Of a stretch of DNA of 64,000 nucleotides, positions 1,659 to 31,883 are shown in pieces (position 1 is the first letter of the stretch; each line of letters begins with the position of its first letter). The position numbers and the translations under genes are program-made. The notes under the pieces are model-generated. The model was not told the DNA's origin. It did no database searches and was given only the letters and a program-made list of their open reading frames with translations. The DNA is from an uncultured bacterium (lineage in GTDB: Bacteria; Babelota; Babeliae; Babelales; JACPOV01): positions 64,001-128,000 of the forward strand of contig CAVUUR010000007.1 of NCBI GenBank assembly GCA_963744715.1, given 5' to 3'.

Positions 1659-3047
1659 ATGAAAAAGTTCTGCGCATATTTTTTAATGTTATTAGCTTTT
1701 GTAATAAATATAAATCTTGTCGGTATTACAACCTTAAATAAAAATGACCCCTACCCACTGTATAATAGTTTATATCCGTACAGTTACTTACTGAAAAGAA
1801 CACAAAATTTTTTAAAATGCATCACACAAGATGATCATCCAGAATTATTTGGTGTAGCTGCTTCAGTATTTCATCAAAAAGCAAATCGTGGTAGAGATTA
1901 TGAAAAGCAGCGCCGATTACTGGGCGATCTGGAAGGCCGCTGGGATATGTTAGCCATGACCTACGGACCATTACCGATAGGCGCATCATTAAGTAACACC
2001 GAATTAGGACGTGCAAAAGTTGCTATATGGGATGGATCACTCGTGCCCCCTAATAATCCCAATGGCGTACTACCTTTTGATCTGCAAATTACCGATAGCA
2101 ATTGTAGAATTGGTTTTTTTGAAGTACCACTCAGATATAGAAAAACAGGTATGCGTTTTGAAATATCAGTACAACCTTTTGAAGATTTTGGTTTCACCTT
2201 CCAATCTGGTTTTGCCGAAATGAAGCAAACATTAACACAATTTGTTGATTTAACGCCAACGGCGACACTTTACGATGGATTTACACTGGCCCTTACTACA
2301 TCGATAGAAACATTTTTAATGAACCCACCACAAAATATTTTAACCTTTACCGGCCAGGGCCTTGAAGTGTGTGATTTTAGAAGCACTTCCTTTGAAGATG
2401 TCCGTTTGTTTGTATGGTGGCGCCATGTTTTTGAGGCCAATGCTTGTAATTGCGAATGGCCTCATTTCTTATTTATTCCTTTTGTCAATTTTGAAACAAG
2501 TTTACCAACGGCAAAAAGACAAGAGCGCAGAAAGGCCTTCGCACTTCCTTTTGGTAACGATGGCCATGTTTCATTAGCAGCAACGGCTGGTTTTCATATC
2601 GATTTTATAGAAACAGTTGAAATTGGCTTTTACGGTGGCGTAACCCATTTTTTACCGAGAAATATAGCAAATTTTAGACTTCCTACGAGCATTATTCAAT
2701 CAGGCGTATTTCCGTTTAGCACTGAAGTGCGAAGGAAACCAGGCCGCAATATTAACTATGGGCTTCTGTTCAATGCCTATCGCTTTTTGGATAAATTTTC
2801 ATTTTTTGCAGAATATGCCGTCATAAGCCATGGAGAAGATACTATAAAGTTAGTAAACCCCGACCCTGCCTTTATTCCTCGGCAACAGGAATGTCTCTCT
2901 AAATTTAGCGTTCATCTTCTTAATACGGCCCTGAACTATGAAATATCACCCAATTTCACCTTAGGCGTCGCTGTACAATGGCCTTTGGTCCAGCGCAATG
3001 CCTACCGAACAACCACGGTATTGGGAACCATTCAAGTAACTTTTTAG
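1659..3047 (+). CDS. Secreted, probable outer-membrane beta-barrel protein
   Basis: Signal peptide, amphipathic strands, C-terminal ...GTIQVTF; AAGGA RBS; shares motifs with 12329..13765. Confidence 0.6.
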   Translation: MKKFCAYFLMLLAFVININLVGITTLNKNDPYPLYNSLYPYSYLLKRTQNFLKCITQDDHPELFGVAASVFHQKANRGRDYEKQRRLLGDLEGRWDMLAMTYGPLPIGASLSNTELGRAKVAIWDGSLVPPNNPNGVLPFDLQITDSNCRIGFFEVPLRYRKTGMRFEISVQPFEDFGFTFQSGFAEMKQTLTQFVDLTPTATLYDGFTLALTTSIETFLMNPPQNILTFTGQGLEVCDFRSTSFEDVRLFVWWRHVFEANACNCEWPHFLFIPFVNFETSLPTAKRQERRKAFALPFGNDGHVSLAATAGFHIDFIETVEIGFYGGVTHFLPRNIANFRLPTSIIQSGVFPFSTEVRRKPGRNINYGLLFNAYRFLDKFSFFAEYAVISHGEDTIKLVNPDPAFIPRQQECLSKFSVHLLNTALNYEISPNFTLGVAVQWPLVQRNAYRTTTVLGTIQVTF

Positions 3048-3164: not shown

Positions 3165-3377
3165 ATGAGCAAAAGAAGAGCAAATATTGTCATCAATGTA
3201 AGTACCAATGTAGAAAAGGCACTTAAGCAGCTTAAGAAAAAAATTGAGCGCGAAGGCATTGTTCGTGATATGAAGCGTGTTGTTTATTTTGAATCTCCAA
3301 CGCAAAAAAAACGTAAACGTCTTATGCGCGCCATCAAACAAAATTATATTAGAATGGCTTCCCAAAAACTTATCTAA
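3165..3377 (+). CDS. rpsU: 30S ribosomal protein S21
   Basis: VEKALKQLKKKIEREG...YFESPTQKKRK. Confidence 0.93.
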   Translation: MSKRRANIVINVSTNVEKALKQLKKKIEREGIVRDMKRVVYFESPTQKKRKRLMRAIKQNYIRMASQKLI

Positions 3378-3391
3378 CAACTGATAATTTC

Positions 3392-3763
3392 ATGATACTA
3401 GTAGCCCCCAAAAAAGTTTCTGACATAAAAAGAGCTCAAAAAGAGCGCCTTCTTTTTAGAGAAATATCGCAGCTTTTTCAACACGCAACGCTTGAAGATG
3501 CTCGGCTGCGTGATTTTTGGATAAGCCGTGTTTCCTTATCGGCTGATAAAAGTATTTGCTATGTTTTTTTTGTTACGCAAAAAGGCATAGAATATTTTAA
3601 CGAAATGTTAGGAATTCTTAAACTGTATAAGCCTTCATTGCGAAAAGCAATTGCAGATGCTATCGCTTCCCGTTACACCCCGGAAATAGTATTTAAATAC
3701 GATGATCAATATGAAAAAGTAGAAAAAATAAATCAACTTATTGATCGGGTCAAAACAGAATGA
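3392..3763 (+). CDS. rbfA: Ribosome-binding factor A
   Basis: REISQL...DARL...SRVSLSADKS...RYTPEIVFKYD. Confidence 0.9.
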   Translation: MILVAPKKVSDIKRAQKERLLFREISQLFQHATLEDARLRDFWISRVSLSADKSICYVFFVTQKGIEYFNEMLGILKLYKPSLRKAIADAIASRYTPEIVFKYDDQYEKVEKINQLIDRVKTE

Positions 3764-4539
3764 TCATCAGTGACCTTGCTAGCATTATTATTTTTTTATG
3801 CTGGGGGTCATTTCTTAATGTTATTGCCTACAGACTTATATTTAGCGATCATTTCTGGGCTCTGCGTTCATACTGTCCCCACTGTAAAAAAACTATCGCT
3901 TGGTATGACAATATTCCGGTAATTTCCTGGTTGTTATTACATGGTACATGTCGCTACTGTCACAATACTATTTCTTATTTGTATCCGCTTATTGAACTTT
4001 TTACGGCCCTTGTTTTTTATGCATTAATTCATACGGTTAATCCTCACCACTGGTTTGGGTATGCAATATTTTTTTCTGCTCTTATTATTACCATCCGCAC
4101 CGATCTTGAAACAATGCTTATTTCGAGGGAAATTACACTGTGGTTGGTTCCCGTCGGTGCTCTATGCAGCATGCTACATCTTATTCCCCTTTCAATACTA
4201 GATAGTGTAATTGGCGCAGCTTCTGCGTATCTTTTTTTATATTGCTTGGCAGTACTCTATCGCGCGATTGCAAAACGAGATGGCATGGGCTTAGGAGATA
4301 TTGATTTGCTTGCTTTGATCGGTTCATTTTTAGGATTACAAGGTTGGTGGATTAGTTTGTTAATAGCTTCTCTCACAGGCACCATTATCGGCGTATTATA
4401 TTTGGCCAGTAAACAATTAAGCAAATCCACACCAATACCCTTCGGACCATTTCTCGCCTTTGGTGCACTTGTGTATGCGCTCAACGGACCATTAATAATG
4501 CCACTAATGAGTTCAATGAATTTAATAGTACATCCGTAG
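3760..4539 (+). CDS. pilD: Prepilin peptidase (A24A)
   Basis: GSFLNV, CPHC...CRYC, GMGLGDIDL, IPFGPFL. Confidence 0.93.
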   Translation: MIISDLASIIIFLCWGSFLNVIAYRLIFSDHFWALRSYCPHCKKTIAWYDNIPVISWLLLHGTCRYCHNTISYLYPLIELFTALVFYALIHTVNPHHWFGYAIFFSALIITIRTDLETMLISREITLWLVPVGALCSMLHLIPLSILDSVIGAASAYLFLYCLAVLYRAIAKRDGMGLGDIDLLALIGSFLGLQGWWISLLIASLTGTIIGVLYLASKQLSKSTPIPFGPFLAFGALVYALNGPLIMPLMSSMNLIVHP

Positions 4540-4622
4540 GATTTAGGTTCGACTTATCTCTTGAGTTTTGTAATACTTTATGACTAATTGTAGTACGTAT
4601 AGTAATCATAACGAGAATAATC

Positions 4623-5903
4623 ATGCATAAAACATTGCTCATCATTACGTTGTTAATAACCCACTCATTATTTTCAATGGACTCAATGCACCAATTAAGT
4701 AAAGCATTGGAATTTAAAAAACCAATGCAACTCATTCAGTTTCCTTCATTGCAAGAACTATGTAGCAAGAAGGTCCTAACAATGACCAGAAAGTATGTTA
4801 AACAAGAATTGCACACTAAATCCATAGATTGGAAGGCTGAAGAAACAGAGGCAAAAGTAAAAGAATTCTTAGGCAGTATTCCTACAAATCTCATGGCAAA
4901 AATGATCCCGCATGCGCAAGAAATTGATATTAGCAAAGAGCCGACATTGGAGCCTTCTTTGAATGGATTATGTTACGTTGACAAAGATCACACTCGCTTT
5001 GTAACTATCGAGAGATCACATTCCGAATCCATGGACACGAAAACTTTAATATCAGTGTTGGGTGAGAACAATAATATAACAACATCTATACCTATAGAGG
5101 CTTTTGTACATAAGGCAGTGCTAGCACCTAACCAAGATTATGTAGCAACGGCCGATTTCAAAAATATAGCAGTCTATGCTATTAAATCAAAGCCTCTACA
5201 AATTGCAACTACACATTTGGGTATAAGTGGTGATATATATGATCTGTTATTTTTTCACGATACATTATTAATTGCCGATTTTGATGGTATACGCATATGG
5301 AACTTTCTAGAAAATAAACCACCTATTCCATTTGTTACTTATCGAGGACTACATAAAAAAATGTGCTTACTCAATGACAACATTGTTTTTACTAATGACA
5401 ACGAAAAACCTACTATTAACATAGTCACTGATACCGGTTTTATTAAAAAAACATTATATGGTCATACGAGAACAATTAAAGATATATCATCTCACCCAGC
5501 AACAAATAAGCTCGCATCCGCAGGTGAATATGATTATACCGTACGCGTATGGGATACCAAAAAAGATCCCGAGGATGCCTGCATAGCCATATTGCCCCAT
5601 GAGTTTGGCGTTGAATCCGTAGCCTTTGACCCTTCTGGCAATAACGTTATTACCGGAACCAATGGCCAAGATCATACTGTATACCTTTGGAATATAGAGT
5701 CAAAGACAAATACTAAGCGAATACAATTGGAGGACTATCCACCTATTACCTTTCTTTCTTGGTCGAAGAATTCAATTATTGCTAAAAATGGCCGCATCGA
5801 CGTATACGCGTGGAAGCCGCAACGTACAGAACTCGGCAAAATTCTTGAAACCATGGTTGAAGAACAAACTAATCTTCAACAACGCAGCAAACGATTACCT
5901 TAA
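4623..5903 (+). CDS. Secreted WD40-repeat protein with N-terminal BC/SOCS-box-like motif
   Basis: Signal peptide; PSLQELCSKKV; WD repeats GHTRTIKDI...LASAGEYDYTVRVWD and SVAFDPSG...TVYLWN. Confidence 0.85.
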   Translation: MHKTLLIITLLITHSLFSMDSMHQLSKALEFKKPMQLIQFPSLQELCSKKVLTMTRKYVKQELHTKSIDWKAEETEAKVKEFLGSIPTNLMAKMIPHAQEIDISKEPTLEPSLNGLCYVDKDHTRFVTIERSHSESMDTKTLISVLGENNNITTSIPIEAFVHKAVLAPNQDYVATADFKNIAVYAIKSKPLQIATTHLGISGDIYDLLFFHDTLLIADFDGIRIWNFLENKPPIPFVTYRGLHKKMCLLNDNIVFTNDNEKPTINIVTDTGFIKKTLYGHTRTIKDISSHPATNKLASAGEYDYTVRVWDTKKDPEDACIAILPHEFGVESVAFDPSGNNVITGTNGQDHTVYLWNIESKTNTKRIQLEDYPPITFLSWSKNSIIAKNGRIDVYAWKPQRTELGKILETMVEEQTNLQQRSKRLP

Positions 5904-6896: not shown

Positions 6897-7281
6897 TAAT
6901 ATACGCAATACTGGTCAGTGAATAGTTAATTGAGTCTGATAGTCACATGCAGCTTAGTTGCACTGCCACGGCTCTTAAATAAAAACGCAGCTACATATTT
7001 AATTATATAATTGTATTTATTACATATAATCATCAATATTATCGTTTCTGTTTATCGTTACTTACTGCACTTATATACAGTTAGACTAATTATCTATCGA
7101 CAGATTACTTGTATTTTACTATAATTAAGAAATAATACAGAGTTTTTGAATTTGAAATATTTTACTACAAGTAGAATAAATTTTAAAAAAATCAGTACAT
7201 AATGTGTTTTTAACGCGTTATCTGATATTTTGATCTAATTTTGATAATAAACAAACCTGAACTAGTAGGTATGGGGATATT

Positions 7282-9966
7282 ATGAGACAAAAAATGCGTC
7301 AGAATCCATTTGCCCGTGGGCCAAAAAATCTTTTATTTGTTGTTTTTTTCTTTGTTACGTGTATTGCATTATTAACAAAACTTACTGATTATACGCGCCA
7401 TGTAAAAAACATGAGCTATTCTTCCTTTATGAAAGCAGTAGAAAATAATGAGGTGAAAGCAATACATGTTTCTGGACAAGATGTATACGGAATTTTTAAT
7501 GACGGAAGCCGTTTTGAAGCCGTAATTGCCGACAATTCTCACAATTGGGATCTTTTGCGTGAGCATAAAGTAGATATTTCCTTTGCTGCAAGCTCTGGAC
7601 AACTTACCATGTGGCATATGTTGTTATTGTTTGCCTTATTAATAGTACCGCTCGCCGTATGGTATTTCTTGCGCCAAACGCGTAGGATCAGGTAGCGGAA
7701 GCAATATTTTTACTATGGGTAAAAGCAGAGCTCGCTTGTTTATGCCATCAATGATCAATGTAACTTTTGATTCCGTAGCCGGAGCTCACGAATCAAAACA
7801 AGCTCTCAAAGATATTGTAGATTTTTTAAAAAATCCTGAAAAATATAAACGCTTAGGGGCTAAAATCCCACGAGGTGTTTTATTGGTTGGTGAACCGGGT
7901 AATGGTAAAACTTTATTGGCAAAAGCAGTTGCCGGCGAAGCTAATTGCCCATTTTTTAGTATTAGCGGTTCTGATTTTATAGAAGTTTTTGTTGGTGTTG
8001 GTGCTGCGCGTGTGAGAGATCTTTTTGCACAAGCACGTCGGAATGCTCCAAGCATTATTTTCATTGATGAAATTGATGCTATTGGTCGTCAACGTGGTAC
8101 TGGTTTTGGTGGCGGTCATGATGAACGTGAACAAACATTAAATCAATTACTAACGGAAATGGATGGTTTTGAATCTTCCAATTCCCCAGTTATTGTTTTA
8201 GCCGCAACAAATATGCCTGATGTTCTTGATAAAGCCTTGTTGCGCCCAGGAAGATTTGATCGTTGGGTTAATGTTCCTTATCCAGATCTTGCAAGCCGTG
8301 AACAGATTTTAAAAATTCATGTAAAAAAATAAAAATGAGTCCTGATGTTGATTTATCGGCCATAGCAAGTCAAACAGCAGGTTTTAGTGGCGCTGATCTT
8401 GGCTGATTTAGTTAATAAAGCAGCTATTAATGCTTCAAAAAATAATCAAGATGTCGTAACGATGGCATGATTTATTAGTTGCGCATAAAATTATGCTGCA
8501 AGCTGGTCAATCCATGAATGGTATGAGTAATAATCAGAATTGCTAAAGGTACTAGCAAACCTAAAATGTTTATGCCTTCACAAGTAAAAGTAAATTTTGA
8601 TTCTGTTGCAGGTAGTACCTGAAGCTAAAGAAGAACTTACAAGATGTAGTTGATTTTTTAAAAAATCCGGAAAAATATCGTCGACTTCGGGGCAAAGTTG
8701 ACCCGTGGCGTATTATTAGTTGGTGAACCAGGTAATGGTAAAACATTATTAGCAAAAGCAGTTGCCGGCGAAGCAAATTGTCCATTTTTTAGTGTAAGTG
8801 GTTCTGAATTTGTTGAAATGTATGTTGGTGTTGGTGCATCACGTGTTCGTGATTTATTTGCACAAGCACGTAAGCATATGCCCAAGTATTATTTTTATTG
8901 ATGAAATTGATGCGTTAGGTGCCAAACGTGGCAGGATTTGATGGTGGTAATGAAGAACGTGACAAACATTAAATCAGTTGTTAACTGAAATGGATGGCTT
9001 TAATACTGATAATGCTTCAGTTATTGTTATGGCAGCAACTAATAGACCTGATGTTCTTAGATAAGGCGTTATTACGCCCAGGGCGATTTGATAAACGTAT
9101 AGAAGTTACCGTATCCCAATATAGAAAGTCGAGAACAAATTCTTAGCAGTTCATGCCAAAAATATTATTATGATGATTCAGCAGTTGATTTACATATTAT
9201 TGCACGAGGAACTCCAGGTTTTTCTGGCGCTGATCTTAGCAAATTTAGTTAATGAAGCGGCTATTAATTGCACCAAAAAAGAATCAAGATATTAGTTACC
9301 ATTTTTGATTTTGAAGAAGCTCGTGACAAAATTATGCTTGGCAAAGAAAGAAAGTCCGTGGTGCCGACTCCTGAAGAACTCAAAGTTATTGCTTTTCATG
9401 AAGCAGGACATACGTTAATTCGTATATTGCTTGGCGATGTTGCTGACCCGTTACACAAAGTAACGATTTTACCTCGGGGATTAGCGTTAGGTGTTTCATA
9501 CGCCTTACCCGATAAGGATAAATTAACGCATTCAAAGGATGAAATGATAGCCCTCATTACTATTTGTATGGGTGGCCGTGTTGCAGAAGAATTAGTATTT
9601 AATATACTATGTAATGGTGCACATAGTGATTTTGACAAAGCAACTGAGCAAGCACGCAAGATGGTATGCCTTTGGGGTATGACCAATGAATTAGGCCCTG
9701 TTACCTATGATCAGGGAAATGGTTCATTCCAATATTCTCAAAAAACAGCCGAAAAGATCGATGAATTAGTACAAAAAATAATTGTCGATGCTTACAACAA
9801 AGCACGAGAATTACTGGAAAAACATCGTGATAAATTAGATATATTGGCGCATGCATTATTGGAAAAAGAAACTATGTATGCTGATGAAATTTATGCATTA
9901 CTTGGTTTGGAACCTCGTGAAAATGTTCGATGGGTACGTAGCGATGCTACCACGCAACAAGCATAA
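7282..9966 (+). CDS. ftsH: FtsH ATP-dependent zinc metalloprotease with two tandem AAA modules (many apparent frameshift errors)
   Basis: Two TM segments plus periplasmic domain; two GEPGNGKT / IFIDEIDA / LLRPGRFD sets; C-terminal HEAGH and GGRVAEE. Confidence 0.9.
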
Positions 9967-10123
9967 TTATTAAAAAAATATGACAATTAGCCCACATGAT
10001 AATTCTGTATATGGCTAATAAACAGTTTGTTAAATGTAATAAAAATCATTTATAGGTATTGAAAAAAGGCATTTTTTTAGTATCCTTAGATAGATAAGTT
10101 TTATAGAAAGGATATTGATCATC

Positions 10124-10327
10124 ATGTCTAGAGTCTGTTGTTTATGTGATAAAAGCCCGCAGGTTGGAAATTTGGTAAGTCACGCTAATAACCGTGTTAA
10201 ACGTTGGATTTATCCCAATGTACATACCATGCGTTTTTCACTCGTAGGAAAAATGCCAAAAAAAGTCATACGCGGCGCTGTATGTACTAAATGTGTCAAA
10301 GCTGGTAAAATTGAAAAAGTAGTATAA
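10124..10327 (+). CDS. rpmB: 50S ribosomal protein L28
   Basis: [10 protein letters not shown]...[18 protein letters not shown]...VCTKC. Confidence 0.95.
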
Positions 10328-10352: not shown

Positions 10353-10628
10353 ATGGCAAATATTAAATCAGCAAAAAAACAAGCTAAAAAAAATATTGCT
10401 CAACGAAAAAAGAATTTAGCTCGTAAAACTTCTCTTAAAACTGCATCAAAAAAAGTTTTAACTGCCATTGAACGTGGTGATAAGATTGAAAAAATTCAAG
10501 AATTATTTAAAGATGCAGAAGCAAAATTAGCTCGCGCAAAGGGCAAAAACGTTTTGCATCCAAAAACTGCGTCACGCAAAATTAGCCGTTTAGCAAAACG
10601 AGTACAAGCTCAAAAAAAAGCTAAATAA
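10353..10628 (+). CDS. rpsT: 30S ribosomal protein S20
   Basis: MANIKSAKK...LHPKTASRKISRL. Confidence 0.96.
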   Translation: MANIKSAKKQAKKNIAQRKKNLARKTSLKTASKKVLTAIERGDKIEKIQELFKDAEAKLARAKGKNVLHPKTASRKISRLAKRVQAQKKAK

Positions 10629-10885: not shown

Positions 10886-12298
10886 ATGAATAACATCAAA
10901 TATTATACCCTTATCGCCTTACTCCTCGTAAATCCATTACATGCAGATTTCGATCTTAGTGCTATTTTCAAAAATATTGATCCTTCTTGTATAAAAGGAG
11001 CAATTGGAGGAGTAGCCACTACCCTAGGAGTTGGTGTTATCTATTCTCTCTATTCAAATGATAGCGAAAAAAAAGCTGCTATGAAAAATATTCATGATCT
11101 TAACATTGCTATTGAAGGATACACATTACAGTATAACGATGAATGCAAAGTAGTTAATTCTACCAATACTGATCAAACAATAGAAACTATTGCGTCAATG
11201 CTCATACACAACAATTCTTCAACCGAAAACTATATCAAAAAAATTGAATATCATGTAACCACACTGAAAAAGTATCTTATTTCTGCTCAAGAACTTTCAC
11301 AAAAAATTTCAAGTGATGAACATAAACAGATCGCGCAATCAGCACAAAAGAATGTCAAAGAACTCATAGATAATTTACAAATTTTATACACTAACCTACA
11401 ACAAGATGCACCATTTATTGAGCTTATTATTGCACAGCGCAAAGAACAGGATCGTTATAAAGAATACGAATCTATGGTATATAACGGATCACGGTTTGCA
11501 CATATGGATGTTGTTAATCGCCAAAATAATGATAAACAATGCATAACAAACTTGATACAACAGGCAAATAATCTATGTCAGAACAAAGACTGCACCCCAT
11601 TCAAAAAAATTCTTCTATCACAAGGAAAAGGTTTGCTCGCAACGATCGAAAAAAAACAAAAAGAACTTGTTAATTCAAATAATTTTATAAAAGAGCGTAA
11701 AGAATTTGAACTATTCCAAGAACAACAACAAAAGTTAAAAAATGAACAATTATCTTTAGAAATTAAATATAACCAAGGCTTATCTGAACAAAAACAACAC
11801 GATATTAAACTCAATGAACAACGCATCACCCAAGAGAAATTACGCCAATATGATGAACAACTACGCCAAAATGATGTAGTACTAAAAGAAGGACTTTATT
11901 TTGAACCTCAAAGAAAGGCTTATGAGGAAAAAATTAGACAGTATAAACAAGAAAAACATAATTGGGAAACCTACCGCTCAAATGTTAAGAGCGCCATTGA
12001 TCGAATGGAACGTTCCGTTAATTCTTTAGAAAATGATGTAAAAATAAAAGAAACTGAATTTTCAAATCTTAGTACGTTATTTGATAATCTTACTGAACAA
12101 GCAAATAAAGATAGCGCTGCATTTCAACACATTAAAAATTTAGTCACTCAATTAAATGAGTATCTCGATACCCCACCTATTAATCCAGATTCAGAAAAAT
12201 GGTTTAAAGATTTTTTTGAAAAACTACGTGGCTGTGTAGATGAACTACTACACAACGAAAGAATTTCACCACCTCAATCTAAGCCTCAAGCTAAATAA
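10886..12298 (+). CDS. Secreted or membrane-anchored coiled-coil protein
   Basis: Signal peptide, Gly-rich hydrophobic segment, long Q/E/K heptad region. Confidence 0.7.
   Translation: MNNIKYYTLIALLLVNPLHADFDLSAIFKNIDPSCIKGAIGGVATTLGVGVIYSLYSNDSEKKAAMKNIHDLNIAIEGYTLQYNDECKVVNSTNTDQTIETIASMLIHNNSSTENYIKKIEYHVTTLKKYLISAQELSQKISSDEHKQIAQSAQKNVKELIDNLQILYTNLQQDAPFIELIIAQRKEQDRYKEYESMVYNGSRFAHMDVVNRQNNDKQCITNLIQQANNLCQNKDCTPFKKILLSQGKGLLATIEKKQKELVNSNNFIKERKEFELFQEQQQKLKNEQLSLEIKYNQGLSEQKQHDIKLNEQRITQEKLRQYDEQLRQNDVVLKEGLYFEPQRKAYEEKIRQYKQEKHNWETYRSNVKSAIDRMERSVNSLENDVKIKETEFSNLSTLFDNLTEQANKDSAAFQHIKNLVTQLNEYLDTPPINPDSEKWFKDFFEKLRGCVDELLHNERISPPQSKPQAK
12158..12298 (+). repeat. Direct repeat copy 1 (3' end of the 10886..12298 gene)
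   Basis: 55-bp block 12211-12265 is identical to 15304-15358; 26-bp block 12273-12298 is identical to 15363-15388. Confidence 0.92.
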
Positions 12299-12328: not shown

Positions 12329-13765
12329 TTAAAAACGAACGTCAACGTTTACCCATACGGAAACAATGCTTACAGTATTATTATTGGTAGCACCTTCATA
12401 AGAGGCATTGATGCCAAAATCAAACCTGTCATAATGATACCCAATTGACCCAAATACAGCATTTGAGCATGAAGCGGCTTGTGCACCACTCCAAGTATTA
12501 ATATTCGCTGCAGTCACCAATGTGTACGATGCATCGCGTGGCATTTGATATTTGTTGGGATACACGCCTTCGGAAATAGTGGCATTGCTTGAGGTAGTGA
12601 CAGTAACCGGCATTGGATTGGCAAGCTGTGCGATGCCAACAAGATCGGCTATGCCAACGGCTGGAAGGTTAATGCATGGGCGTACCTTTTCTGCTTGGCG
12701 GTACCAAAAGTTGTAACCAAGTTCAAAACTAAAATCTCTTAATTCGACGTGCGCTGCTAAAAGCAAATCAAATGAATTGCGCGGTGTAACATGTGCTTTA
12801 AAAGTAAGATCGTTGATAGCAAAAAATGGATCGGCTGTTGCTGTTGGTGTAGTGAATAATAAGTAACGTGACCATTGGCCGTTTGGCACCATATCAAATG
12901 ATCTTCTTTCTTTTGCTTTAAAAGCATAACGCCATTTACATTCGCTATATAATGAAAATTGATTGCATGCACCAAAGTCAAATGATTTTTCAATATTAAG
13001 ACCAAGTCCAACTTGCGCATGCTTTGATCCAACAATTGGTTCAAACAAGTATACTGCTTTTGAGCCGTGGCCTGTTGGTATTCCAACTAATGCGTAGATA
13101 TCAAAAAATAATGATTCATTTTGACACGGCCTAAAATTTTTGAGTAATTTTATCTGCACATCATCAAAGCCTCCTTTTGATCGTGCACCACAAATTTTGC
13201 CATACTTCATGTCTGTGCTTGTGAATGCTTGAGTGAGAGTAGAAAATCCCGGCACTTGTCCAAGATCACCCGGAGTGGTAATTCTCTCGCAAATATGCAT
13301 ATTGTTTTTTCGTGTAACAGCGGCGGTGTTTATGGTTAATGCAAAATCTGCGGGCAACATCCATGCAAGATAGATCATAGTGCCATATGTTTTTTGCACA
13401 GGGCTAAATGACAACGTTGAAGAATAATAAGTACCGGGAGCAGAAATAACTTGGAACCATAATGAATCAATATCTCCCGAACCATCTTCTCGTACATTCA
13501 TGGAGGATAAGTGATTGATGTTAAAATATTTTTTTATAGATTTGCCAACAGTTTGTGTATAAATGGGTTTAACTGAAAACAAAAATTGATCATCCATATT
13601 TGCATATTCATAAAAAACAAGTGCATCTTCATACAGGGGATTATATGCCATTTGGCGCGGCACGAAAATGGTATGTGCATAGCAATCCAAACGTAGCATT
13701 TGCGCACACAAGCTAGCGAGTGCAAATATGGTAAGTAAACATTTTTGAATAAAGAGCATATTCAT
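12329..13765 (-). CDS. Secreted, probable outer-membrane beta-barrel protein
   Basis: Signal peptide, C-terminal ...VWVNVDVRF; paralog-like to 1659..3047. Confidence 0.6.
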   Translation of the reverse strand: MNMLFIQKCLLTIFALASLCAQMLRLDCYAHTIFVPRQMAYNPLYEDALVFYEYANMDDQFLFSVKPIYTQTVGKSIKKYFNINHLSSMNVREDGSGDIDSLWFQVISAPGTYYSSTLSFSPVQKTYGTMIYLAWMLPADFALTINTAAVTRKNNMHICERITTPGDLGQVPGFSTLTQAFTSTDMKYGKICGARSKGGFDDVQIKLLKNFRPCQNESLFFDIYALVGIPTGHGSKAVYLFEPIVGSKHAQVGLGLNIEKSFDFGACNQFSLYSECKWRYAFKAKERRSFDMVPNGQWSRYLLFTTPTATADPFFAINDLTFKAHVTPRNSFDLLLAAHVELRDFSFELGYNFWYRQAEKVRPCINLPAVGIADLVGIAQLANPMPVTVTTSSNATISEGVYPNKYQMPRDASYTLVTAANINTWSGAQAASCSNAVFGSIGYHYDRFDFGINASYEGATNNNTVSIVSVWVNVDVRF

Positions 13766-13796: not shown

Positions 13797-15114
13797 TTAT
13801 AATAATGGTCCATATTTTTGTTCAAGTAATCTTACAAATAAATTTGCCGCCACTGGAGTCGAATAAAATGATGCATAGGCATTTGAGTCGTTACCATCTA
13901 ACCACGTAGCAATAAAACCTTGTGCATTAGCACTCAAGCCAACAGGTCCTCCTATTGTCGTTGATGAGGTAGGCAAAATAGAACAGACGGGCGTAAAATT
14001 GAATCCATTATTATTGGTCAATGTCCATACAGGAGATCCAGGACTACCTTGACTGGCCCCAACAATCCAAACGGACATAAAACCGGCTTGATTGGCAGCA
14101 ACCCACGGACCGGCATCAGGATTATCGGGATTTGATGCAAATGGTGAAAATGTTGCCCAGTTGGAAGAAATAGTAGCCGTTGAAAAATATGTTTGGCCTG
14201 CCGCACCTGCATTAGCTCGCGCGACTGCCATAAAGTATCCATTCAGTTCCGCTACAATAGGAACACTTTCAAAAAAACCTACGCTAAGAATGGGATAAAG
14301 CGGTCGTTGATGAAAAAGGATTAATTGATGAAAAATAAGCTGAATACGTTGGAAATAAATTGTTAATCCAAGCAAGCATACAACTATTTCCTACAACAAC
14401 GACACTCACAAATCCTCTTCCTGTTTGAGAATTCGTATTTTGAGCCAATACTGAACCATCAAAGGTTACTTGCGTTGGAGGGCTCCAAGCTGCAGTTCCT
14501 ATCGAAAAACTTACATAGGCATTATTATCAGCTCCTATCATGGTGGCAACAAAACCTGATGATCCTCCACCTACATACACATCGGCGTTAGCATTGAGTG
14601 ATAACGTATTAGGATTTATTTGAATTGCTTGACTCCAACTCGTACCATTGTCAGTAGAAAAACTTGACCAAGCATTATTCGCATTGTCCATCCAAGTCAC
14701 CATAAAGTCCGTGGCATTACCACCCGCAAAGACATCTGAAGCGGGAGCAACATGCCCCTCAGCAGAGGTGATTAAACCACTTGTCCATGTCGTTCCATTA
14801 TTTGAAAAACTATAATGAGCATTGTTTGCAGCATCTGCCCAAACCGCCATGAATCCGGCCGGTGTTCCAGCAGAAAATATATTGCTCGTTATGTTACCGG
14901 AATTACTTAAATTGACGGGAGTAGTCCACGGTGTAGTTGCGGGGCATAATGCATATGATAGTGATGAAGTTAGTAATAGAATGAGAAACAAAAAAAAATT
15001 TTTTAAGAAAGTAAATCTTTCGCTTTTTCCTGAACTTCTTTTGCAGAATTTTTTCTGGAGGACTTCCGGTATACGACTCCCATTGAACAGATGTCTGTCA
15101 CGTATCATAATCAT
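13797..15114 (-). CDS. Secreted Asp-box/BNR-like repeat (beta-propeller) protein, one frameshift near 14295
   Basis: Repeated GFMAVW..A.NNA..SFS.DNG.TW units in both ORF halves (14284..15114 and 13797..14375). Confidence 0.7.
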
Positions 15115-29110: not shown

Positions 29111-30079
29111 ATGAGCAATAGCATACTTCTCGTTAAACTAATTTTTAACTTTGTTATCGGTTTATTTAGTAGTTCTCCCTTTGATATTACCTTGATTGAC
29201 CCTAATACTCTTTCTCAAGAAGCTACGCTCGAATTAAAAAATTTTGAAGCATCTTTTAGTTATCCATTCAGTAATACCGAAGAGTTTAAAATTCAACATG
29301 GCAAAGATGGTAACTACTTTGCTTTTTTTGAACGCCTTGGAAAACCTTATTATTACATGGCACGAAACAAAGAAAATAAAAAATTCACTAAAACCGTTGA
29401 TAATGAAACGGTAACTCTTGAGCACAAACGAGGAGAACTTGCTGCGGTAGGATGCGGAATTTTAAGGAAACTCAAAACATATAATGGTACATCAATTAAT
29501 GCTTGGTATATCTGTGATTTAAAAGTTAATACATCGTATCAAGGCGAGCACTTACCGTTAATAATGACGCAAAAGGCACTCGTACCGAGATTTGTACAAT
29601 GCCCTAGAGGCTTTGGTATTTGCATGAATCCACCATCAGGAGAACCAAAGGCGGCCGGTATTTTTAAAAAACATGGCCCAATTCCAGGGCTCGATACACA
29701 GACACTAAATCTCTATACCTTATCTGCACAAGATGTTAAAAAACATCAAGCATCTATAGAAGATTGTCTCAAAAAACATGGTTACCTGAATGAAACTATG
29801 CAGATTAATTTTGTTTCAACCAACGGCGCCAAAGATTATATTATTTTTGATAAATCTGGCAACAATCAACGTCCATGGCATTTGTTTCATATGAACGTTG
29901 ATACAACGAGAACTACCGAATATCACCACGATGGTTGTTATATGATTTCTTCGGTAGATACAACGCCGCTTGATACTGAGTTAAAATCTATAATAGGTTC
30001 GCCATCTTCAACGGCTCAAATCGTTAGTTTTGGCATGAAAGATGTTGATTTTAATTTTTTAACGTCAGATCAAATTTAA
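29111..30079 (+). CDS. Hypothetical protein, GNAT-fold-like
   Basis: AAVGCGILR...AWYICDLKVNTSYQGEHL resembles GNAT motif A. Confidence 0.5.
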   Translation: MSNSILLVKLIFNFVIGLFSSSPFDITLIDPNTLSQEATLELKNFEASFSYPFSNTEEFKIQHGKDGNYFAFFERLGKPYYYMARNKENKKFTKTVDNETVTLEHKRGELAAVGCGILRKLKTYNGTSINAWYICDLKVNTSYQGEHLPLIMTQKALVPRFVQCPRGFGICMNPPSGEPKAAGIFKKHGPIPGLDTQTLNLYTLSAQDVKKHQASIEDCLKKHGYLNETMQINFVSTNGAKDYIIFDKSGNNQRPWHLFHMNVDTTRTTEYHHDGCYMISSVDTTPLDTELKSIIGSPSSTAQIVSFGMKDVDFNFLTSDQI

Positions 30080-30101
30080 ATTTTTTTGATCATTATTGTT
30101 T

Positions 30102-31883
30102 TTATATACTGCTCATCAACTCATTGATAAATAGTTCAGCGGGCATAGTATATAATTCACTTCCCCACTGTTTAATAACTTCATTAGTAACCGGATCAAC
30201 AAGAAGGAAGGTAGGAAATCCTACAATAGTATAGTTGTTTTTAAGCGTGTTATACGGTTCTGCTTTTTCATTGGTACCATCTACACTCAGCGGAACCACA
30301 AGATTTAATGCTTGCATAACATTCTGATCTACTAACAATGTTTTGTTAATGGCAGTACATATTGAACAAAACTGTGCCCAAAAATCGATAAATATTTTTT
30401 TATTTTCTGCTCGTGCTTTGTGCAAAGCATGTTCGTACGAAGTGTGCCAGATACTAGCATGATTACTATATTTCTCTTGATACCGCATTTTAAATGATTG
30501 CGTTAACAGCACCACCGAAAGTGCTATTAACAACATACCAAAAATATTATTTATTGTTTTCCACATTGAGCGAACCATCGGTTGCGTGCTGTACACATAG
30601 TAGATGCCAACAACGAGAATTATCAAAGAAGTAATAAACATTAAAATATGTAAGGGTACAATATTACTTAAATAATATAAGCAAACACCTATCAGCATAA
30701 AGCCAAAAAACTTTTTAATTTCAAGCATCCAAGAACCGGTTTTTGGAAACATGGTTAGTGAATTGGAAAAAGTTCCTATAACTAACAACGGTGTACTCAA
30801 TCCAACACCAAAGGAAAATAACAATAAAAACCCTAAAAGCGTATTGCCCAAGGTGGCTACAATACTTAATAAAAGAGCCAATCCTGGCGAAACGCATGGT
30901 GAAGCAATAGTGCCACTCGCAGCGCCAAAAATAAATGCCGATACCAAAGAACCGTTAGTTTTGATGTTATGTTGTGATTGAAAAACACGCGGAATATATA
31001 ATTCATATAATCCAAACATTGAAAATGCTAAATAAAGAAGAATAATAACGATAAACGCTACCGATAGCGGATGTACGAGTAATTTACCATATAAAGGACC
31101 ACTACAACTTGCCAAAAGGCCAAAACAAGCAAAGGTGGTTGCCAATCCCATCGTGTAGCAAAATGCTAAAAAAAAGTTATAGATAAATGACGAACTTCGT
31201 TGTGCTTGCAATATTCCTACGGTGATAGGAATCATAGGATAAATACAAGGGGTTAAACTCAAAAGTATCCCCAGTAAAAAAACAAGCAAAATACGTATTG
31301 GCGTAGATTTAGTTTGCTCGATCAACGTTGATACATATTTTGCATAATTCCATAACACCTGCATTATTGATTTCTTTGGTGAAGACTTAGCAGCAGGTTC
31401 ATGCTGAGTCTTTTTTTTAACCGTGTCAGCTATTATGGTTTGCTCTTCTGTTTTTTGCACCAGCGTTGAGGAAGCATTAGCTATACTAAAAGAAAGCGGT
31501 ATAAGTTCGATCTGAGGCGATTGCTGACTGTAATGATACGTAACGTGCAAAAAAGCATTATCGACAGCTTTGTCAGTACTATTTTCAACGATAAAAGTTA
31601 TATAAAAATCTTCATCAAAAACTAATTTCGTTTCTTTACTTACTTCATCATAATGGTTTACCGCTTCTCGGCTACTAGACCAATCGGATAGTACAATCTC
31701 CGGACTATCAACCGAAACATTAAGAGAATCTTTATAGAGATAATTGCCGGTTTTTATTGCAAAAAATACCGTTATTTTCTGTTTTTTCAGATCAATGCTT
31801 TCATGTTTAACCGTTATTGAAGCAGTAAGAACCATGCTCATAACTAAAGAAAAAACTGTAATAAAAAATCTACTGGTATTCAT
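30102..31883 (-). CDS. dsbD: DsbD-like thiol:disulfide interchange protein
   Basis: SLTPCIYPMIP, SPC, G.WM, C-terminal DFWAQFCSIC...GFPT. Confidence 0.9.
   Translation of the reverse strand: MNTSRFFITVFSLVMSMVLTASITVKHESIDLKKQKITVFFAIKTGNYLYKDSLNVSVDSPEIVLSDWSSSREAVNHYDEVSKETKLVFDEDFYITFIVENSTDKAVDNAFLHVTYHYSQQSPQIELIPLSFSIANASSTLVQKTEEQTIIADTVKKKTQHEPAAKSSPKKSIMQVLWNYAKYVSTLIEQTKSTPIRILLVFLLGILLSLTPCIYPMIPITVGILQAQRSSSFIYNFFLAFCYTMGLATTFACFGLLASCSGPLYGKLLVHPLSVAFIVIILLYLAFSMFGLYELYIPRVFQSQHNIKTNGSLVSAFIFGAASGTIASPCVSPGLALLLSIVATLGNTLLGFLLLFSFGVGLSTPLLVIGTFSNSLTMFPKTGSWMLEIKKFFGFMLIGVCLYYLSNIVPLHILMFITSLIILVVGIYYVYSTQPMVRSMWKTINNIFGMLLIALSVVLLTQSFKMRYQEKYSNHASIWHTSYEHALHKARAENKKIFIDFWAQFCSICTAINKTLLVDQNVMQALNLVVPLSVDGTNEKAEPYNTLKNNYTIVGFPTFLLVDPVTNEVIKQWGSELYTMPAELFINELMSSI

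Follow-up and report, generated by a model that had tools for sequence, protein, structure and literature searches.

The housekeeping FtsH of a bacterium of the Babeliales carries two AAA+ modules in tandem, apparently the product of a duplication, ahead of a single M41 protease domain, and we consider it probable, at roughly two chances in three, that six such chains form two stacked, probably active ATPase rings above one zinc-protease ring. The gene lies in a 64,000-nucleotide stretch of DNA (hereafter the window) from a protist-parasitic bacterium of the Babeliales (Dependentiae/TM6), whose relatives' records are named Candidatus Babeliales or Dependentiae. According to reviews, FtsH-type enzymes have a single AAA ring set on a single protease ring, and a double ring is the hallmark of p97, NSF and ClpA/B. 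The double-AAA FtsH is a real, conserved and apparently unpublished variant: no description of a multi-module FtsH was found in the literature searched, which covers few subscription journals.

As assembled, ftsH is split into short frames, and once 17 indels are bridged it reads as 889 codons (Table 1). Its pieces match, in order, the Pfam families FtsH_ext, AAA, AAA and Peptidase_M41. In a frameshift-aware alignment with end-to-end coverage, 609 of 889 aligned residues (68.5%) are identical to P0001, an intact protein of 890 residues (L031:6780-9449) from a genome of the same family, which itself comprises FtsH_ext, two AAA, two AAA_lid_3 and one M41 domain. The FtsH_ext match (PF06480, E 6.8e-8) covers residues 17-85 and is flanked, in the predicted structure of an intact relative, by helices 14-39 and 110-134, giving the N-terminal membrane anchor with an extracytoplasmic domain that is typical of FtsH/M41 proteins. 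Equally typical is the M41 protease on the same chain, with its HExxH motif and conserved aspartate: residues H705, E706, H709, E768 and D782 are invariant in 115 of 115 aligned relatives, Asp782 being what we take to be the third zinc ligand. The three intact double forms scored against TIGR01241 reach 1199.9, 1200.5 and 1112.7 bits (cut-off 600), values inflated by the second module. Every motif that the earlier note had named was located in the DNA of both modules, together with HEAGH, and intact orthologues establish the single gene that it had proposed, with a TM-periplasmic-TM anchor, two diverged AAA+ modules and one M41 domain. The linker between the modules spans 14-24 residues with a mode of 20 (58 of 120 relatives), measured between boundaries that we set ourselves. 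A promoter scan upstream gave no evidence of a promoter, the best site (7097-7125, 11/12) being one of 14 found where 19 were expected.

Table 1. Features of the double-AAA ftsH and its downstream neighbours, in window coordinates.
Feature	Position	Strand	Basis or remark
ftsH, two AAA+ modules	7282-9966	+	frameshift-aware alignment; intact orthologues
N-terminal membrane anchor: TM1, periplasmic FtsH_ext, TM2	7282-7690	+	boundaries approximate
AAA module 1 (D1), membrane-proximal	7733-8500	+	
D1 Walker A GEPGNGKT	7889-7912	+	
D1 pore-1 EVFVG, inside FIEVFVG	7976-7996	+	
D1 Walker B IFIDEID	8057-8077	+	
D1 pore-2 GGGHDEREQ	8108-8134	+	
D1 DGF inter-subunit motif	ends 8170	+	
D1 sensor-1 ATNMPD	8204-8221	+	
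D1 Arg fingers ALLRPGRFD	8234-8260	+	
D1 altered lid TAGFSG	8374-8391	+	
Variable Ser/Ala/Gly-rich linker, ~20 residues	8501-8562	+	
AAA module 2 (D2), protease-proximal	8563-9342	+	
D2 start KMFMPSQVK	8563-8589	+	
D2 Walker A GEPGNGKT	8722-8745	+	
D2 pore-1 EMYVG, inside FVEMYVG	8809-8829	+	
D2 Walker B IFIDEID	8891-8911	+	
D2 drifted pore-2 GGNEER	8943-8960	+	
D2 DGF motif	ends 9001	+	
D2 sensor-1 ATNRPD	9035-9052	+	
D2 Arg fingers ALLRPGRFD	9066-9092	+	
D2 lid ARGTPGFSG	9202-9228	+	
D2 hinge RDKIMLG	9322-9342	+	
M41 zinc metalloprotease domain	9343-9900	+	PF01434, E 4.6e-57
M41 HEAGH	9397-9411	+	
M41 GGRVAEE	9571-9591	+	
M41 conserved Asp in HSDF	9622-9633	+	
rpmB (ribosomal protein L28), downstream neighbour	10115-10327	+	PF00830
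rpsT (ribosomal protein S20), downstream neighbour	10353-10628	+	PF01649

Seventeen frameshifts in one gene with intact neighbours could mean that the window copy is an artefact, namely a chimera joining two ftsH genes, or else a pseudogene undergoing decay, a reading that the following evidence makes very improbable. Relative to P0001, the frameshifts comprise eleven of +1, one of +2, three of -1 and two of -2, the first at 7684 and the other 16 between 8325 and 9291; the description as single-base indels in the earlier note thus holds for 14 of the 17, the remaining three being of two bases. The read-through has no in-frame stop, and two further relatives used as reference give 17 and 18 frameshifts, again with no stop. 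It also retains 129 of the 132 columns that are invariant in 115 relatives, the three misses sitting on frameshift positions. Intact, colinear orthologues with both modules occur in relatives with the same synteny, which carry the double form at this locus rather than only a single-AAA FtsH, and a chimera is therefore excluded; since these orthologues carry both modules and the modules themselves are diverged, neither is the repeat an assembly duplication. No second intact ftsH was found in the genome: within this assembly, which is 86% complete, no M41 gene besides the window gene was found to have an intact HExxH. In a comparison with about 410 kb of a relative, 131 genes had an orthologue, and 23 of them show a frame change or stop; realignment of 15 of these 23 gave 106 indels (73 insertions) and a single stop, with 14 indels in gyrB, 18 in uvrA, 9 in lepA, 3 in gyrA and 2 in dnaE. 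Because gyrB, lepA and uvrA show the same bursts, we judge the indels of ftsH to be assembly errors and not decay.

The insertion-biased bursts are patchy over several contigs of this assembly (gyrB, uvrA, lepA and both lon genes), and most genes are clean. Both Lon genes are broken here and intact in four of four relatives, and other findings of broken genes from this assembly are likely errors. A second M41 gene, on the minus strand of contig C12 of the same assembly (about 29300-31700, an 810-residue frame), reads GPTRTGKS and HQAGH and is likely a divergent, protease-dead paralogue in which the catalytic glutamate is replaced.

Intact double-AAA FtsH proteins, for which the earlier note had proposed a search, are present in related genomes. 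A two-module ftsH of 884-943 residues is intact in eight of nine genomes of the same family, and in the ninth both Walker A motifs are present in a gene cut by a contig end. In other families, 7 of 31 genomes have the double form; 20 of the remaining 24 were examined, and all have a single-module protein of 604-651 residues. Across the phylum, a strong match is found in 248 of 261 genomes and two or more strong matches in only 56, so that most lineages live with one module; among 30 of these 56 that were checked, 26 have doubles and four have singles with a further match elsewhere. All of the best 120 protein hits to the junction region contain two Walker A motifs, spaced 269-279 residues apart between the modules. 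The rpmB-rpsT pair follows ftsH at 15 of the 16 double loci and at 19 of the 20 single ones. The double gene is therefore the housekeeping ftsH, orthologous by synteny to the single-module ftsH of the same order, and not an extra paralogue: at the ftsH-rpmB-rpsT locus, the double form takes the place of the single one. We note that one genome (G121) has four strong AAA matches, with one double gene (L088) examined, and may contain a second.

Motifs were counted in 120 proteins with the two modules aligned separately. In all 120, each module retains the Lys and Thr of Walker A, the Asp and Glu of Walker B, the Asn of sensor-1, the two Arg fingers and the DGF motif, and the pore-1 residue is aromatic throughout (D1, Phe in 118 and Tyr in 2; D2, Tyr in 102, Phe in 17 and Trp in 1), so that both modules have the full set of motifs of classical-clade AAA proteins. 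In AFG3L2, the DGF motif and the Arg fingers act across subunits, according to the structural study of that protease (10.1101/551085), and both modules are therefore predicted to pack into rings. The same study assigns the positioning of pore-loop 2 to Arg R416 and Asn N432 (10.1101/551085), and the residues that match these two, located by counting from the numbering of that paper, are invariant in both modules. The dN/dS ratio is 0.015-0.071 for D1 (seven of seven close pairs) and 0.013-0.074 for D2 (six of seven, one being saturated); both modules are under strong purifying selection. With the motifs invariant and dN/dS below 0.08, there is good support for the prediction that each module works as an ATPase and can form rings.

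The two modules differ in which further features they keep. Within one chain, D1 and D2 are 60% identical (49-72%), compared with 70% between D1 modules and 66% between D2 modules. D1 keeps the pore-1 (EVFVG) and pore-2 (GGGHDERE) loops of the single-module form, with the pore-1 Phe in 118 of 120 and the pore-2 Arg and Glu in all 120. It has lost the RDKIxxG hinge, where Ser replaces the Gly in 86 of 120, as well as the ARGTPG lid, the NEAA Glu and the Arg after sensor-1 (the TNR Arg is present in 12 of 120). Lid and hinge features are instead kept by D2, with the Arg, Glu, Asp and Gly in 118-120 of 120 proteins (TNR Arg 118, NEAA Glu 118, hinge Gly 119); the hinge glycine matters for coupling to the protease. 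Its pore-1 reads E[MK]YVG, its pore-2 has drifted (Arg in 60 of 120, without the conserved Glu), and its start has newly conserved Gln (111 of 120) and Lys (117 of 120) residues. E. coli FtsH has both sets of features, and in HMMER alignments its residues 28-292 align to the front of D1 and 289-593 to the back of D2 and the protease, so that the split is a derived state. Judged from these alignments, the ancestral features are split, module 1 having the pore loops and module 2 the lid and the protease hinge. In 26 genes, no sign of ongoing gene conversion between the modules was seen (the DNA of D1 and D2 is 61-71% identical, and exact matches run to at most 13-30 bases).

We next consider how the modules are arranged. 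The AlphaFold model of a full-length intact relative has a mean pLDDT of 81.9 and a pTM of 0.54, and a model of D1-D2 only, built from 26 sequences, has a pTM of 0.51; in both, the pLDDT of the linker is below 50. D2 and the protease of the full-length model superpose on substrate-bound AFG3L2 (6nyy_E) with an rmsd of 2.2-2.3 Å over 447-470 positions. In the same model, D1-D2 lies 5.8-8.6 Å from NVL/p97 over about 490 residues, as against 16-17 Å from the same chains for the D1-D2-only model; the two predictions disagree, and the D1-D2 geometry is not reproducible between them. The double ring put forward in the earlier note is consequently favoured on grounds other than the modelled geometry. 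Because FtsH-type domains form stacked hexameric rings, the protease is fully constrained and a four-module relative (P0128) cannot fit one ring, stacking of the modules as a hexameric double ring is the likeliest arrangement.

Three chains could instead build one pseudo-hexameric ATPase ring in which D1 and D2 alternate above only three protease domains. In engineered single-chain ClpX, linkers join neighbours within one ring, and the flexible linker here, about 20 residues long, could span ring neighbours in the same manner; the retention of cross-subunit motifs in both modules, the D1-D2-only model, which is not p97-like, and the divisibility of six by two and by three modules are all compatible with such a ring. 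Yet both the AAA and the protease domains of FtsH-type enzymes form hexameric rings that stack, as reviewed in PMC7226402, the protease domain is under full constraint, and the full-length model is roughly p97-like. Moreover, four modules could not close a six-membered ring, a limit from which stacking would be free. On this evidence the pseudo-hexamer is quite unlikely. The variable linker differs from that of p97, which is described as conserved (PMC4730245), and this counts against a p97-like form of stacking.

The closest known relatives are canonical FtsH and AFG3L2/YME1 (M41; TIGR01241; PDB 7vhp, 2ce7, 3kds, 6nyy and 6az0), which share the two-TM anchor with its periplasmic domain, the classical-clade AAA motifs and the zinc site of HExxH plus Asp; the D2-protease geometry is also alike in AFG3L2 (rmsd 2.2 Å, predicted model). 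The double form differs in its second full AAA module and in the division of ancestral features between the copies, and solved FtsH chains match one module of it at a time. Canonical FtsH has one AAA module per chain; with two, the protein is therefore classed as an FtsH variant and not as canonical FtsH. Pore-loop 2 of AFG3L2 contacts the protease (10.1101/551085), yet in the double form it is the loop of the protease-proximal D2 that has drifted. Like the double FtsH, the type II AAA+ proteins p97/Cdc48/VAT/NVL (TIGR01243) have two tandem classical-clade AAA modules, with 35-40% identity over D1-D2. Unlike in p97, both modules are FtsH-derived, a membrane anchor replaces the N-domain (the N-terminus is FtsH_ext with membrane helices), and the protease is on the same chain; scores against the CDC48 profile TIGR01243 are 448-463 bits, below its cut-off of 802.65. 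ClpAP and ClpCP, in which two ATPase rings in series feed one protease, the serine protease ClpP, offer a working analogy only. The modules of the double FtsH are paralogues of each other, anchored in the membrane and joined to a zinc protease in one chain, unlike those of ClpA, whose D1 and D2 belong to different clades and whose partner ClpP is a separate protease (PMC7226402).

Within the same phylum, Babela massiliensis has an expanded set of 'ATP-dependent Zn proteases' (Pagnier et al. 2015, PMC4378268). Its canonical FtsH (Babela_gene_680) has 602 residues and one module, and the available portion of that genome paper mentions no two-module FtsH (PMC4378268).

The history of the duplication was traced with quick IQ-TREE trees. 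In the tree built from the sequence outside the AAA modules, with 27 doubles and 47 singles, the two forms are interleaved, and the double state needs five changes, at least three of which are forced by strong branches. In whole-module trees, 26 of 27 D1 and 25 of 27 D2 modules group by position and not by family. When the modules are halved, a branch with SH-aLRT 88 has all 27 D2 fronts on the same side, the singles lying among D1, and a branch with SH-aLRT 99 has all 27 D1 backs on the same side, the singles lying among D2. We favour one old duplication inside the Babeliales followed by reversions to one module through crossover; the half-module pattern could also reflect convergence after several duplications, and long branches could pull the D1s and the D2s together. 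A single AU test on all 101 rows does not reject duplication at the family level (p 0.197), and AU tests on 39 rows that we selected reject it in five of six cases; the exception is G025, the double of which may be an independent duplication. A candidate natural revertant is the single-module ftsH of G051 (L078:324-2162), which is sister to two doubles (support 95), reads D1-type ATNIPEVL followed by a D2-type lid and hinge, and alone among the 47 singles has a D1-type Ile following sensor-1; the case, made on few residues, is suggestive. Under the favoured history, the old duplication would have been followed by several returns to one module via recombination between the repeats, each product joining the front half of D1 to the back half of D2.

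The interleaving of doubles and singles, and a single that appears to have reverted without harm beside two doubles, would also be expected if the second module adds little, i.e., if a near-neutral duplication was locked in by partial loss of features in each copy, with D1 as an auxiliary or loosely attached ring and activity equal to that of ordinary FtsH. The complementary losses in D1 and D2 are what duplication followed by degeneration predicts, and the linker is flexible. Such near-neutrality is hard to reconcile with catalytic and ring-contact residues that are invariant in both modules at dN/dS below 0.08, with the newly conserved residues at the start of D2, and with multi-module forms in at least six separate groups outside the Babeliales (below), which suggest repeated benefit; we regard it as unlikely.

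Returning to two active stacked rings, position in the chain suggests a division of labour. D1, beside the membrane and with FtsH-type pore loops, would capture the substrate and start pulling, and D2, with the lid motifs and a glycine hinge into the protease, would pass the chain to the zinc sites. The weakest step is the gain from the extra ring, which by analogy with ClpA would be a longer grip and less stalling, in a lineage where neither ClpP nor ClpX was found; for ClpAP, the D1 ring is reported to limit stalling and slipping (10.1101/585554). Added unfolding or extraction power is therefore offered as a hypothesis. Whether FtsH is limited by weak unfolding is disputed (PMC9601784), and the fact that most Babeliales genomes manage with the single form weighs against added power as a need.

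ATP-dependent proteases are unusually few in the Babeliales. A search of 41 Babeliales genomes (G000-G040), single and double alike, found neither ClpX nor ClpP, and HslV was not found in the five genomes examined, all five of which have Lon, with two genes each; FtsH and Lon thus appear, from gene content, to be the ATP-dependent proteases of the order. Loss of Clp, considered as the cause of the duplication, finds no support as a correlate, because single-module genomes too yielded no ClpP or ClpX.

Multi-module proteins also occur outside the Babeliales. Among the best 150 representatives at 50% identity, 35 have at least two AAA modules, in 30 cases before one HExxH; full Walker A motifs number three in five proteins and four in one (P0128). 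In a quick tree, the modules cluster according to the protein that carries them, in six groups with strong support that are separate from the Babeliales, which points to at least six separate origins of multi-module forms there. Two of the 20 clusters looked up have organism names (Thermoleophilaceae and Ca. Melainabacteria). Inspected by eye, confinement of the hinge glycine to the last module gives a mixed picture in these lineages. P0128 (1367 residues), P0127, P0129, P0132, P0134 and P0149 carry three or four AAA modules ahead of a single M41 domain. In P0130 (1428 residues), a whole FtsH is duplicated in the chain, with two AAA modules, two HEAGH motifs and membrane segments between.

More broadly, FtsH may be a modular motor whose ring number evolves up and down: in the Babeliales a double ring, with D1 capturing and D2 delivering, would do the work of Clp and revert by recombination, and other bacteria would stack three or four rings. 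This wider proposal is tentative, and we put its chances somewhat below even. If it is true, a layout of three or four rings would be unlike any solved AAA+ chain matched here. Why some machines need two rings is hard to isolate, because one-ring and two-ring enzymes usually differ in all other respects as well. Orthologues at the same locus that are about 65% identical in the motor and have one or two modules are a natural test of the second motor, and with the apparent revertant and the three- and four-module forms they would allow direct measurement of what an added ring contributes. The double form also illustrates a route from a type I to a type II motor, through duplication and division of features.

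Several neighbouring observations concern other genes. In G013 (L098:1306-3192 and 3291-4973, which adjoin each other) and G019 (L099:1200-3095), genes encode proteins that begin with what resembles a signal peptide and contain two FtsH-like AAA modules without a protease domain; their best profile is TIGR01241, below its cut-off, and they are possibly the 'CDC48-like AAA ATPase' family reported as expanded in Babela (PMC4378268). Near ftsH in the window lie three long ORFs, 1659-3047 (+), 10886-12298 (+) and 12329-13765 (-), the first two of which have no Pfam match. The first and third give the impression of outer-membrane barrels, with alternating hydrophobic C-terminal stretches and a terminal Phe. 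Finally, ORFs 14284-15114 and 13797-14375 (-) share a Ser/Thr/Asn-rich repeat character and overlap at a frame change, and may be one gene split by an indel.
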